Assembly: GCF_000008625.1 (NCBI RefSeq)
Contig: NC_000918.1
Coordinates: 480,001-512,000 of the forward strand
DNA length: 32,000 bases
Reading direction: 5' to 3'
Source of the DNA: Aquifex aeolicus VF5
Lineage (GTDB): Bacteria > Aquificota > Aquificia > Aquificales > Aquificaceae
Notes under the pieces: model-generated
What the model saw: the letters and a program-made list of their open reading frames with translations, nothing else
Database searches by the model: none
Told to the model about the DNA's origin: nothing
Shown: positions 2,374 through 13,454 of the stretch, piece after piece
Numbering within the stretch: the first letter of the stretch is position 1
Layout of the letters: each line of letters begins with the position of its first letter
Program-made: the position numbers and the translations under genes

Positions 2374-3567
2374 ATGTACAACTATCCAGACGAGAGAGGT
2401 TATTTCGGGCCCTTCGGGGGAAAATTCGTCCCCGAAACCTTGATGTACGCCCTGGAAGAACTTGAAGAAAAATACAGGGAATTGAAGAGCGACCCTGAAT
2501 TCCAGAAAGAACTCGATTACTACCTGAGGGAGTACGCCGGAAGACCCACTCCCCTTTACTTTGCGGAGAAACTAACGAAGTACGTGGGCGGTGCGAAGAT
2601 ATATCTGAAGAGGGAGGATCTTCTCCATACCGGTGCCCATAAGATAAACAACACCATAGGTCAATGTCTTTTGACCAAGAGAATGGGAAAGAAAAGGGTT
2701 ATAGCGGAAACGGGGGCGGGACAGCACGGGGTCGCAACCGCAACCGCCTCAGCACTTTTCGGCTTGGAGTGCGTCGTTTACATGGGTGAAGAAGACGCGG
2801 AAAGGCAGGCTCTTAACGTTTTCAGGATGAAACTCCTCGGAGCAAAAGTGGAAATAGTAAAGAGCGGAAGCAGGACCCTAAAGGATGCCATAAACGAAGC
2901 ACTGAGAGACTGGGTGACAAACGTTGAAAGTACCCACTACGTGATAGGTTCTGTGGTTGGTCCTCATCCTTTTCCCATGATAGTGAGGGATTTTCAGAGT
3001 GTAATTGGAAGGGAGACTAAGGAGCAGATACTGCAGAAGGAAGGAAGGCTTCCCGACGCTATAGTCGCGTGCGTGGGAGGCGGTTCAAACGCTATGGGGA
3101 TATTCTACCCCTTCGTTGAAGACAAAGGAGTTCAGCTAATAGGCGTGGAAGCGGGAGGATACGGACTGGAAACTGGACAGCACGCTGCTTCCATATGCGG
3201 GGGAAGTGTAGGAATCCTTCACGGTATGAAGAGTTACTTCCTTCAGGACGAGGAAGGACAAATTCAGCCAACTCACTCCATTTCAGCTGGACTAGACTAC
3301 CCAGGAGTTGGACCCGAACACGCTCTCTTTCACGAGATAAAACGGGCAAAGTACACCACAGCAACCGATGAGGAGGCGCTTGAAGGTTTCAAACTCCTCG
3401 CACGTACGGAAGGTATAATCCCTGCCCTCGAAAGTGCCCACGCGGTAATAAAGGCGGTTGAAGTGGCAAGAGAATTGGGAAAGGACGGGATAGTTGTTAT
3501 TAACCTCTCAGGAAGGGGAGACAAGGATATGGCACACGTTATGAAACACCTTTCACTCGAAGGCTAA
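2374..3567 (+). CDS. trpB: Tryptophan synthase beta chain
   Basis: PLP-lysine motif HTGAHKINN, plus GGGSNAMG. The N-terminus [23 protein letters not shown] is typical. The 43 extra upstream codons of track ORF 2245 overlap truB and are not TrpB-like. No trpA is adjacent. Confidence 0.95.
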
Positions 3568-9792: not shown

Positions 9793-9818
9793 TCTCATAC
9801 CTCCGCTTATCTTTTCTA

Positions 9819-9827
9819 ATTATAACA
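9819..9827 (-). promoter_or_regulatory. Extended -10 promoter element for tsf (TGTTATAAT)
   Basis: Minus strand reads TGT-TATAAT, a perfect TGnTATAAT, about 27 nt upstream of the tsf ATG at 9792. It sits immediately downstream of the IS right end. Confidence 0.45.
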
Positions 9828-9844
9828 GGCTCAAAAGGGAACTT

Positions 9845-10000
9845 TTGCGGGAGGAAAGTGTGAACTATCCCGCATCATAGATGCGGGGCTTCGGGTGGGT
9901 TTACACCCTCTTTGGAGTGCCTTACCACCACGGGCAGGTTCACACCGCCCCTACTCCTGCCTATCCCGCCATACAGCGGAATAGCGGAGCTACTTTCCCT
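9845..10000 (-). ncRNA. Candidate omega-RNA (reRNA) scaffold plus predicted guide of the TnpB element; 5' end undefined and may extend towards ~10100
   Basis: GC island by hand count: 62 of 100 nt in 9881-9980 versus 36 of 100 nt in 10401-10500 within the same ORF. Stacked hairpins: GGGTG/CACCC at 9893-9908, GGCAGG/CCTGCC at 9933-9961, CCGC/GCGG at 9966-9979, and the RE hairpin. The position at the tnpB 3' end matches known TnpB omega-RNAs. Confidence 0.5.
9869..9887 (-). repeat. Right-end (RE) subterminal hairpin of the IS
   Basis: Plus strand CCCGCATC-ATA-GATGCGGG, 8 of 8 bp. It contains the tnpB stop codon (9877-9875). Confidence 0.8.
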
Positions 10001-11269
10001 CAACTTGAAAAATACTCTTAACCTTATCGGCCTCAATATCCCACTTATCAGGTCAAATTTCCCGAGTTTCTTTAGCAAATTCCTGCAAGCGTTTACATCA
10101 GCATTCAAAAAACCCAAAAGTCTTGTCCTGAAAAGCCCTCTCTTTACCCTCGCTTCGGGAGTGTAGGTCTCTTTATTAACAGCTCCCTCTACGGAGCTGT
10201 CCACTCCCGAAGTGTAAGCTTCAGAAATATATTCAACTTCTATTCCATATTCTTTTGCCTTGTATTCCAAATACTCTTTTACCTTTCCGTGCGGTAACAA
10301 ACTCCATATTTGATCTGCTACACTACTCAGTTTACTTTCTTTATTCTTGTTCCTTGCCGCATCGCCTATGTATATTTTCCTAACTCCGTATTTAAGGGCA
10401 AGTTCCAATATCAGGTTGCTTATTGTATGGGCATAGTGTTTTAAAAGCCTCTTTACTTTGAGCCATAATCTTGAAATTCTCTCCTCCAGAAAGTGAGTTA
10501 AAAATCCTTTCTTTTTAGCTCCTTCAAGTCTGCTTTGAAGACTCGCTATTTTCTTTAAGTATTTCCTTAGCAAACTCTTTAATCCATTCCCGTCAATTAT
10601 GTAGGGTTGGGGTATGCCTTCTATTACTATTGCGAAAAAGTTTGATGAGTTCGGATCTAATACCATCACCTTGTCTTGCTTTAATAGTTTTTCTCCATTC
10701 TGAGGTTTTTCGTAGATTATGTGGAGTTCAAACTCCTTAGCGTTGGCTTTCGGAACAATTTGAATATTCTTTATCAACCTTTCGTCCAGCTCCAATCCCG
10801 TATCCAGCCAAAGGTATTTAAGCTCTATTCCATGTTTTTCTTTTAGCCATTGCCTTAAAGCCTTTGAAAGAGAAAGTCTTATTTTTGTTCCCACAACTTT
10901 AAAGCCTGTTTGGTCGTAGGTTATGGTTCTGTGTGGTTTGTTTTTAGGTCTAAATTTTGGCGGTTTAACTTCCTGTCCTTTAAACTTTTCTGGATTATGC
11001 AAAAACTCAAACCAGTTTTTAAAAGCTCTAACAAGTTCGTCCAAGACAATTTGAGCACAGCGACTTTGAAGGTTTTTAAGATGCAAAGAATTGTCCTTAA
11101 GCTTGTTATAGAGGTCGTAGGTGTTTACTTTTGCCTGTTTGGTTTTAATGGAGTAAAGAGCTTGATTAAAGAGCCTTCCTGAATGGTAGGTAAGGTAGCC
11201 TAAAACGATTTTGTATTCGTTAGGAAGGTCTGTAAAAGCTATAGTGATGCATCTTAGAGGTTTTGGCAT
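9875..11269 (-). CDS. tnpB: TnpB/OrfB-family (IS200/IS605, IS1341-like) RuvC-fold protein, atypical: zinc-finger cysteines absent and canonical RuvC-II Glu replaced
   Basis: 464 aa. RuvC-I VMVLDPNSSN (D205). Then WSLLPHGKVKEYLEYKAKEYGIEVEYISEAYTS, followed by FLNADVNACRNL (RuvC-III D391). GAGGT SD 9 nt before the ATG. Family assignment is by motif order seen by eye. Confidence 0.85.
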   Translation of the reverse strand: MPKPLRCITIAFTDLPNEYKIVLGYLTYHSGRLFNQALYSIKTKQAKVNTYDLYNKLKDNSLHLKNLQSRCAQIVLDELVRAFKNWFEFLHNPEKFKGQEVKPPKFRPKNKPHRTITYDQTGFKVVGTKIRLSLSKALRQWLKEKHGIELKYLWLDTGLELDERLIKNIQIVPKANAKEFELHIIYEKPQNGEKLLKQDKVMVLDPNSSNFFAIVIEGIPQPYIIDGNGLKSLLRKYLKKIASLQSRLEGAKKKGFLTHFLEERISRLWLKVKRLLKHYAHTISNLILELALKYGVRKIYIGDAARNKNKESKLSSVADQIWSLLPHGKVKEYLEYKAKEYGIEVEYISEAYTSGVDSSVEGAVNKETYTPEARVKRGLFRTRLLGFLNADVNACRNLLKKLGKFDLISGILRPIRLRVFFKLRESSSAIPLYGGIGRSRGGVNLPVVVRHSKEGVNPPEAPHL

Positions 11270-11324
11270 TTGAGTGACCTCACAAGATTCATTTTAAAAA
11301 ACTGCTTACACAGGCGGCTTCTGT

Positions 11325-11345
11325 CCCCGTATCATAGATACGCGG
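11325..11345 (-). repeat. Left-end (LE) subterminal hairpin of the IS
   Basis: Plus strand CCCCGTATC-ATA-GATACGCGG, 8 of 9 positions paired. Same loop and stem register as the RE hairpin, with one compensated C:G to T:A change. Confidence 0.8.
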
Positions 11346-11379
11346 TTTTAGCCCGCGGATTTACTATAAAATACAAGTA

Positions 11380-13454
11380 ATGGAAGAAGAAAAAGTAAAA
11401 GAGGGATTGTGGGAGTTAGCTTACAACCTGTGGTGGACGTGGAATCCGCCGGCTAAGGAATTATTCAGAAGCATTGACCCGCTTTTGTGGAAGGAAACTA
11501 AGGAAAACCCCATTGAGTTATTGAGGAAAACCAAACTCCTTGAAAACAAGCTCAAAGACGAAGATTTTATATCTCACTTCAAGTACGTTTATTCCCTTTA
11601 CAAAACCTACATGAACAGGCATTCGAAATACGAGGATACGTATAAGAAGCCTATAGTTTTCCTGTCTCCCGAGTACGGACTTCACCACACACTACTTATA
11701 TACGCGGGGGGACTGGGCTTTTTAGCAGGAGATATACTCAAGGAGAGCAGTGACTTGGGATTTCCGCTTATAGGTGTCGGGTTTATGTACCCTCAGGGCT
11801 ACGTAAAGCAGAGGATAAGGGTTGACGGATGGCAGGAAGACCTTGACGCACAAAATCAAAAGGAATTAATGCCCGTTAAAAAAGTTCTGGACAAAGAAGG
11901 AAAATGGCTCAAGTGCTACGTTTACGTAAGGGATGAAAAGGTTTACTTTGGAGTCTGGGAAGTTAACGTGGGAAAGACAAAGCTCTACCTTCTTGACACG
12001 AACGTAGAGGAAAATACTCCCTGGAACAGGGAAATATCCTCAAGACTCTACGTTCCGGACAAAGACCTGAGGTTAAGACAACAGATAGTTCTTGGTTTTG
12101 GCACCGTAATACTCCTTGAAAAGCTGGGCATTGATGCAGGAGGTTTTCACATAAACGAAGATTATCCCTCGTTCGTGTTCCTTGCAGAAATATTTAAACT
12201 TCTAAAAAAAGGTCTGACCTGGGATAAGGCGATAGAAGAAGTAAGAAAGATTTCTCTCTTTACCACGCACACACCACTACGGGTTGCCGTAAATACTTAT
12301 CCCTTCCACATGATAGAGGAACAGTTTCTATTCGTTAAGGATGTTTACGGAATAGACGTAAAGAAAGTTCTGGAACTCGGAACGAATCCTGAAGACCCTT
12401 CGGAGGGTTTTAACAGTACGATTATGTCCCTCAGACTCGCAAAGTACGTAAACGCAGTGAGTAAAAGACATCAAGAAGTTTCAAGCAAGATGTGGAGTTT
12501 TTTATTTAAAGAAAAGGAGAATCCAATAGATTACGTAACGAACGGTGTTCACTTTCCCACATGGATTTGTTCAGATTTGAGAAGACTGTACGAGGAGTAT
12601 TTGGGAGAGAACTTTGTGGAACTTCACGACCACAAGTCTCTGTGGGAATTAATAAGAGACATACCCGACGAAGAACTGTGGGAATATCACATAAGAAATA
12701 AAGAAAGACTTATTGAGCACATAAAAGACAGGGCAAGGGAAAGGTGGGTCAAGGAAAAAGCGGATCCTTCAATCCTTATGGCCGAAGGTCTGTTCCTTGA
12801 TTCTGACGTTCTTACGGTCGGTTTTGCGAGGAGGATGACCGGTTACAAAAGACCGGATCTTATATTCACGGATGTAGAACGCTTAAAAAAGATAGTGAAT
12901 GATTCGGAAAGACCTGTTCAGATAATATTCGCGGGAAAGGCTCATCCGGCTGATATCGAAGGGAAAAAGATAATCCAGAGAATATTTAACTTTGCGAAAG
13001 ATCCGGAATTTGGGGGAAGAATAGCTTTCGTTGAAGATTACGACGAACTCCTTGCCCATTACATGGTGAGGGGTGTGGACGTATGGTTGAACAACCCTCT
13101 TCCTCCCCTTGAAGCCTGCGGGACAAGCGGTATGAAAGCTTCTATGAACGGAGTGCTTCACCTTTCAATACTTGACGGTTGGTGGATTGAGGGTTATAAC
13201 GGAAAGAACGGTTGGGCTTTCGGAGATTACGAAGTTGAAGGAGACAGGAACAGAGCGGATGCGGAGGCCATTTACAACATCCTTGAGAATGAAGTAATCC
13301 CCCTTTATTACGAAAGGGACGAGAGGGGAGTGCCAGTTAAGTGGATAAGTATGATGAAGGAAGCTATAAAAAGCATTACCCCTAACTTTTGCTCCAGAAG
13401 GATGTTAAAAGATTACATAAATAAGTTCTATTCAAAAATTTTAAAGGAGGAGGG

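Follow-up and report, generated by a model that had tools for sequence, protein, structure and literature searches.

The region between glgP and tsf in Aquifex aeolicus VF5 raises the question of whether a TnpB-like protein that has lost two hallmarks of its kind can still act as an RNA-guided nuclease. The window analysed here is a 32,000-nucleotide stretch of this genome (contig NC_000918.1, positions 480,001 to 512,000 of the forward strand), and the protein concerned is the 464-residue product of an open reading frame (ORF) at 9875..11269 on its minus strand, hereafter window TnpB, with tsf-pyrH-frr (minus strand) on one side and glgP (plus strand) on the other. An earlier note, made from the DNA letters alone, had pointed to a glycine in place of the RuvC-II catalytic glutamate and to the loss of all four zinc-finger cysteines, and had favoured a nuclease with a rearranged active site over a nuclease-impaired RNA-guided DNA binder. 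Our analysis supports the first of these and not the second. We put at roughly 0.8 the probability that window TnpB is an active nuclease, guided by an omega-RNA and dependent on a transposon-adjacent motif (TAM), that aids the retention of its transposon and has a metal site made up of D205, E350, and D391 and a zinc-free TNB domain. What was observed are the sequence features and their conservation, the boundaries of the element, covariation in the RNA, purifying selection, and the presence of TnpA in multicopy relatives.

Protein family and predicted catalytic residues

Window TnpB scores above the curated cut-offs of two Pfam profiles, OrfB_IS605 (47.7 against 30.5 bits) and Cas12f1-like_TNB (41 against 26.3 bits), and of NCBIfam guided_TnpB (130 against 100 bits). 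Conservation within the family was counted over 107 full-length homologues (about 45-88% identity), from which we also built an AlphaFold2 (AF2) model with a mean predicted local distance difference test (pLDDT) score of 82. With this model, Foldseek found AsCas12f (PDB ID: 8j12; E 1.4e-18), ISDra2 TnpB (3e-14), and Fanzor2 (4e-12). No solved structure close in sequence to window TnpB was found in the protein data bank (PDB); the best match there to the family profile was the zinc-finger-bearing AsCas12f, at 56 bits, and the Fanzor chains were not reached by a sequence search with the RuvC-II/TNB fragment even at E <= 10. By profile and fold, and by the bounded element and structured 3' RNA that accompany it, the protein is a TnpB of the IS200/IS605 type.

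Reading the residues directly from the DNA bore out the placements that the earlier note had given for D205, G302-D303, E350, and D391 (Table 1). In a phmmer alignment with AsCas12f, 'kiyiGDa' of window TnpB faces 'tiqmEDl', so that G302 is paired with the Glu in 'iqmED', which we take to be the catalytic RuvC-II residue; a glycine is thus left at the RuvC-II position, and Cys-free sequence stands opposite both CxxC motifs. All 107 homologues have G302 and E350, and D205 and D391 are each present in 106 (the odd row being a gap), with the NADVN motif (N389-A390-D391-V392-N393) kept in at least 105. Beyond the family, we searched 1.84 billion cluster representatives with a profile and obtained 4588 matches at E <= 0.001; 137 of the best 150 allowed alignment over all four catalytic columns. 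Here, D, G, E, and D each fill their column in every one of these 137 nearest representatives of 50%-identity clusters.

The spacings in window TnpB are 145 residues from D205 to E350 and 48 from G302 to E350. Moreover, E350 precedes by six residues D357, which aligns with the column of the first zinc-finger cysteine (Cys1) in relatives that keep a finger, and such relatives (L030, L031, L041, L046, L047, and L054) align to E350 and match the published regular expression for the alternative glutamate (Ealt; PMC10711439), defined as a Glu located six residues ahead of the first CxxC. As judged by alignment, E350 sits exactly at the Ealt position. In the AF2 model, strands β1, β4, and β5 span residues 200-207, 296-302, and 344-348, and E350 comes directly after β5, beside β4 and β1 of the RNase H sheet. 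We predict as catalytic residues D205, the alternative glutamate E350, and D391: G302 would end β4 at the canonical place of the Glu, and E350 would supply the carboxylate from its position after β5, together with the two aspartates.

This arrangement is a described one. Rearrangement of RuvC-II (RIIr) has been reported in two major clades and eight large branches of TnpB (PMC10691335), and in the largest rearranged branch the Glu is changed to Gly with an alternative Glu after β5, in a RuvX-like arrangement. According to the same work, 'derived' TnpBs carry NADXN in RuvC-III and typical TnpBs DRDXN, and the C4 zinc finger was lost 'in some large TnpB branches'. The rearranged group has also been named TnpB2 (PMC10530073); in that work its member TvTnpB, from Thermoplasma volcanium, cleaved DNA at 60 °C with NTGAC as the TAM and showed no collateral activity, and the E467A variant of ApmFNuc (ApmFz2) was inactive. 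In Fanzor2, as solved by cryo-electron microscopy, D324/E467/D501 hold Mg2+, the Glu being 'shifted 50 residues' (PMC11832414). Window TnpB shares with the rearranged TnpBs (TnpB2, Ealt, or RIIr) the Gly at the canonical site, the alternative Glu 48 residues on, NADVN, an IS200/IS605 context with Y1 TnpA, and a thermophilic host; it differs in lacking the four zinc-finger cysteines, in a five-residue TNB insertion, and in an ORF that extends about 65 codons into the omega-RNA region.

Comparison with other RNA-guided nucleases places the protein further. Fanzor2 (ApmFz2; PDB ID: 9b0l) has the relocated Glu at a similar spacing (143 residues for D324-E467), consistent with the Foldseek match above, but is eukaryotic or viral, with a zinc finger, an N-terminal extension, a DPG motif, and an IS607-type link. 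Window TnpB instead has DPN, an association with Y1 TnpA, and no zinc finger; DPN here, DYG in half of the family, and Y1 TnpA as the associated transposase set it apart from Pro-Fanzor and Fanzor proteins. ISDra2 TnpB (PDB ID: 8h1j and 8exa) and Cas12f share the WED/REC/RuvC/TNB fold (Foldseek E 1e-18 to 1e-11), a 3' omega-RNA overlapping the ORF, and a TAM next to the left end, whereas their canonical RuvC-II Glu and C4 zinc finger are both missing from window TnpB. Cas12f is moreover CRISPR-associated, and no CRISPR repeat array was found within the 32-kb window. SisTnpB1 of Sulfolobus islandicus (PMC10640517), compared here by its published description, is likewise a TnpB from a hyperthermophile, active at 75 °C, and solo-tnpB elements of S. 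islandicus have TTTAT at their left end, but its spacing (D187/E271/D335) and its TTTAA TAM are different.

In a search of 5.8 billion proteins, 348 relatives of window TnpB were found, mostly in Aquificota (Thermocrinis, Hydrogenobacter, Hydrogenivirga, Persephonella, and Desulfurobacterium), with members also in Dictyoglomus (73% identity) and Archaeoglobus (46% identity). The ratio of nonsynonymous to synonymous divergence (dN/dS) of the core was 0.07-0.08 against three relatives with DNA, and window TnpB departs from columns conserved at 90% or more at two positions only, L40S and R277K, both mild. Decay, which the earlier note had named as a check on its reading, was not seen: the dN/dS values and the intact conserved columns rule out a pseudogene, and the pattern of Gly302, E350, and cysteine loss is a family trait under selection, not decay or the chance of one sequence. 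Proteins 81-82% identical to window TnpB also occur in a metagenome-assembled genome (MAG) labelled Gammaproteobacteria (QOAS01; L003 and L006), where the copies are probably mis-binned Aquificota DNA and would otherwise point to a recent horizontal transfer.

The predicted zinc-free TNB segment

Window TnpB has three cysteines in all (7, 71, and 395), and residues 354-389 contain neither Cys nor His, so the absence of Cys from every zinc-ligand position, as first noticed, is confirmed. Opposite 'ytsqrCseCg' and 'fkCraCgy' of AsCas12f stand 'ytsgvdssveg' and 'frtrllgf'. The Cys1 column and the insertion in this segment were set by alignment with the zinc-finger-bearing L030, L031, L041, and L046. 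In the AF2 model, pLDDT is 83-93 in ten-residue blocks spanning 351-400, and three short strands (374-376, 379-381, and 387-389) are retained. Among the homologues, Cys is conserved at none of the zinc-ligand columns; D357 and S358 never vary, and R374 and R377 hardly do. In the nuclease that we propose, the TNB domain between E350 and D391 is devoid of all four zinc ligands, as in most relatives.

In fact, this state is common. CxxC motifs are absent from 125 of the 137 nearest representatives, with one motif in 1 and two (a C4 finger) in 11, and 48 of the 137 have no Cys whatsoever in the TNB segment. Because 125 of 137 lack CxxC, the zinc finger is, as far as these sequences indicate, not a defining trait of the wider rearranged RuvC-II group; on the same alignments, both alterations are the normal state in this region of TnpB space. 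The earlier view that they are unusual is not upheld, since they belong to the large group already described as RIIr, TnpB2, or Ealt. The published Ealt regular expression, which needs CxxC...CxxC, fails on window TnpB.

The family itself is compact: above 760 bits there are two full-length clusters at 50% identity, and the scores that follow are 378 bits or less. In a neighbour-joining tree, the nearest non-family relatives by distance include P0124, P0126, and P0133, which keep the C4 finger, a placement that hints at independent loss and is weak evidence at such divergence. It is a tentative suggestion, somewhat short of even odds, that this Aquificota/Archaeoglobi-centred family lost its zinc finger independently among finger-bearing Ealt relatives and replaced it with a metal-free mini-domain, marked by the invariant D357-S358 at Cys1 and the YTPE insertion. 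If true, the family would offer a compact, hyperthermostable nuclease, RNA-guided and zinc-independent, with TTTAT as its TAM; by analogy with other Ealt enzymes, no collateral cleavage would be expected from it.

The insertion sequence and its predicted omega-RNA

Comparison with related loci suggests, as the best reading of window positions 9860-11370 (minus strand), a non-autonomous, tnpB-only insertion sequence (IS) of the IS200/IS605 family, about 1.5 kb long, between the divergent glgP and tsf genes. The IS ends, described earlier as intact, are so by this comparison and by hairpins at both ends (Table 1). On the left, similarity to L027, L001, and L002 starts at about 11371 and the flanks diverge. 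TTTAT is the only left-boundary motif common to the sub-families, which are dissimilar in the rest of their left ends (TTTAT|AGAAA, TTTAT|CTTC, and TTTAT|CACC), and 5' of it the sequence differs from copy to copy. As folded DNA, the left end (LE) forms a 6-bp hairpin within a larger stem, and its stem and TAT loop resemble the hairpin of the right end (RE), which folds at -9.0 kcal/mol (z = -4.16) and shows family-wide compensatory changes. Every member of the family ends in ...GAAGC-hairpin-(G/A)TAGTTCAC, and similarity among all copies ceases after TAGTTCAC, setting the right boundary at 9860. The 20-mer beyond it is unique within the window, and its role as a guide is one that we infer from the known TnpB mechanism.

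Table 1. Features of the insertion sequence, its predicted omega-RNA, and window TnpB (window coordinates).
Feature	Position	Strand	Remarks
Predicted TAM/target pentanucleotide 5'-TTTAT-3'	11366..11370	-	Adjoins the left end; deduced from alignment
Left end (LE), non-coding	11270..11365	-	Subterminal hairpin CGTATC-TAT-GATACG at 11328-11342
D205	10657-10655	-	gat; VLDPNSS; read from DNA
G302-D303	10366-10361	-	ggc gat; IYIGDA; Gly302 (10364-10366) at the canonical RuvC-II position
E350	10222-10220	-	gaa; ISEAYTS; two residues before YTS
Zinc-free TNB ('ex-zinc-finger') segment	10103..10210	-	Residues 354-389; D357 at the first Cys position; 5-residue insertion YTPEA
D391	10099-10097	-	gat; NADVNACRNL; RuvC-III
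3' module of predicted omega-RNA scaffold	9860..9954	-	Last 95 nt of the element; three hairpin units; overlaps the last ~27 codons of tnpB; ends in TAGTTCAC
RE subterminal hairpin CCCGCATC-TAT-GATGCGGG	9869..9887	-	Contains the tnpB stop codon (9875-9877)
Predicted guide-encoding flank ACTTTCCTCCCGCAAAAGTT	9840..9859	-	Host DNA that lies upstream of tsf and directly 3' of the RE

Mobility is evident in the relatives. L002 carries a 141-residue Y1 TnpA between LE and tnpB (PF01797, 162 bits), and L001 has a truncated 79-residue copy of that TnpA in the same place, where a gap of equal length is present in L004 and L007. The family thus includes autonomous elements of the IS605 type. Single genomes hold several copies of about 88-90% nucleotide identity with differing flanks, and many copies lie at contig ends, breaking assemblies. 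The window copy is the single copy of the element within the window.

For the 3' end of the element, we built a covariance model (R1) from 20 family members, which found 32 matches in related loci and exactly one in the window, at 78.1 bits; no Rfam family matched in the window. In the R1 alignment of 32 members, 92.3% of cells are paired, compensatory double changes occur in 22 of 24 pairs, and the covariation score is 0.715, compared with 0.226 for shuffles (0 of 500 reach the observed value) and at most 0.153 for slid controls. With RNAalifold on a plain MAFFT alignment, the structure was recovered only in part, as differences in loop length offset the arms, a difficulty that the covariance model solved. 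The tnpB reading frame crosses this RNA module, and its stop codon lies inside the RE hairpin. Over residues 401-464 (the ~65 C-terminal codons, 9875-10069), synonymous divergence is 0.39-0.60, compared with about 1.4 for the core, which argues for constraint at the nucleotide level at the 3' end of tnpB; in the AF2 model, pLDDT is below 50 at residues 422-447 and 449-464. The conservation of these codons looks to be driven by RNA or DNA constraint rather than by protein constraint.

Several related copies vary in structure. In the Aquifex sp. MAG WFPV01, L049 and L053 (about 2897-3214) hold internally deleted copies in which short internal fragments come after LE and the first ~215 nt; these we read as decayed derivatives or derivatives resembling miniature inverted-repeat transposable elements in a related genome. 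Compared with its paralogues L017 and L023, L011 (2528-2937; Hydrogenothermaceae) carries about 400 bp of inserted DNA between its left end and tnpB. On an Aquifex sp. contig (L020), two RE-like TAGTTCAC ends stand about 100 nt apart, at 759 and 860, the first after a copy that has lost most of the RNA module through an internal deletion. An insertion of 35-40 nt in the terminal RE hairpin of L016 (4322-4452), L028 (643-772), and L033 (603-735) lengthens their R1 matches to about 130 nt instead of 94. In an archaeal copy (L025, 553-567), TTTATAG, the left-boundary start of the Aquificales sub-family, directly follows the RE end TAGTTCAC, with no second element after it.

Proposed mechanism, rival explanations, and neighbouring genes

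If window TnpB is a guided nuclease, the 3' end of the tnpB transcript would fold into the omega-RNA scaffold (9860 to ~9954 and further 5'), and the ~16-20 nt of host flank after TAGTTCAC would serve as the guide. TnpA acting in trans would then excise the element, leaving a resealed donor site made up of TTTAT and a match to the guide, and the TnpB-RNA complex would cut this resealed site so that recombination with a sister copy could restore the element. Several points weigh against this account. Nuclease activity, the TAM, the use of a guide, and zinc independence are all deduced from sequence and by analogy, and the nearness of E350 to D205 and D391 is judged from model topology. Since no empty site was found in the metagenomes (0 matches to the junction pattern; one contig, L081, with a different upstream gene, for a degenerate pattern of the tsf N-terminus), alignment is the basis for both the TAM and the precise place of the left boundary. 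The covariation figures come from an alignment that had been fitted to the model itself, and part of the structure, the RE hairpin, could act as DNA for TnpA and not as RNA. Moreover, neither the window copy nor the rest of the 32-kb window contains a tnpA.

This last observation bears on two rival explanations. One holds that window TnpB is active but that this copy is a stranded relic with no TnpA in the genome and no part in current transposition, as the lack of tnpA from the element and the window, the single copy here, and the internally deleted copies in the related MAG would suggest. Nevertheless, its ORF is full-length with all invariant residues and the two mild substitutions as its only departures, and LE, RE, and RNA module all score well, so that we consider such stranding unlikely, albeit the most plausible of the rivals. 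A nuclease-dead, domesticated RNA-guided DNA binder resembling TldR, with its guide repressing the neighbouring tsf or glgP promoter, would also account for the missing tnpA and for the absence of the canonical RuvC-II Glu, which TldR and other inactivated, exapted TnpBs share (PMC10691335), and the element lies right between two promoter regions with a predicted guide that matches the region upstream of tsf. That match, however, is automatic for any IS200/IS605 insertion, and the RE, not a TAM, precedes the site.

The active site speaks further against a dead binder. TldR proteins have lost catalytic residues with no conserved substitute, are immobile, and are tied to specific host genes, whereas window TnpB has a complete rearranged triad in a bounded, multicopy IS: the alternative Glu is invariant (107/107 and 137/137), both Asp are kept, and TvTnpB and Fanzor2, which share this arrangement, are catalytically active. 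Its transposon ends and TAM motif are intact, and its relatives are multicopy with differing flanks and carry TnpA, unlike immobilised exapted TnpBs. A related tsf locus (L081) is without the element, and on this comparison no conserved placement beside tsf in other species without IS ends was seen. We regard repression by a dead binder as very improbable. Still less credible is catalysis by D303 in place of E350; D303 does adjoin the canonical position in 'IGD', but it was rejected as the substitute acid because position 303 varies among the homologues (D in 46, K in 45, and N in 15) and is D, N, K, or others in the wider group, while E350 never changes.

The scientific weight of the locus is low. 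Relocation of the glutamate has been documented as characteristic of a huge branch of TnpB, with biochemical and cryo-electron microscopy support in relatives, and zinc-finger loss is already in the literature and is the majority state among the nearest relatives. We found no literature report of an assayed member of this family. Its practical interest is modest: because of its hyperthermophile origin, defined ends, likely TTTAT TAM, and well-constrained RNA scaffold, the family is an easy candidate for a thermostable, zinc-independent, compact nuclease.

At the left flank (11360-11385), the glgP start codon at 11380 (plus strand) is about 10 nt from the TAM and left end, with no Shine-Dalgarno sequence visible, and on the plus strand the TAM and LE start read CTATAAAAT, a -10-like box just upstream of the ATG. 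Given these features, glgP may have a leaderless transcript whose promoter the IS end created or brought along. At the right flank, the 61-nt spacer between RE and the tsf start (9799-9859) keeps an extended -10 element, TGTTATAAT. This element is also conserved at 280-330 of L081, a related tsf locus with no IS and another upstream gene, which suggests that the tsf promoter was left intact by the insertion.

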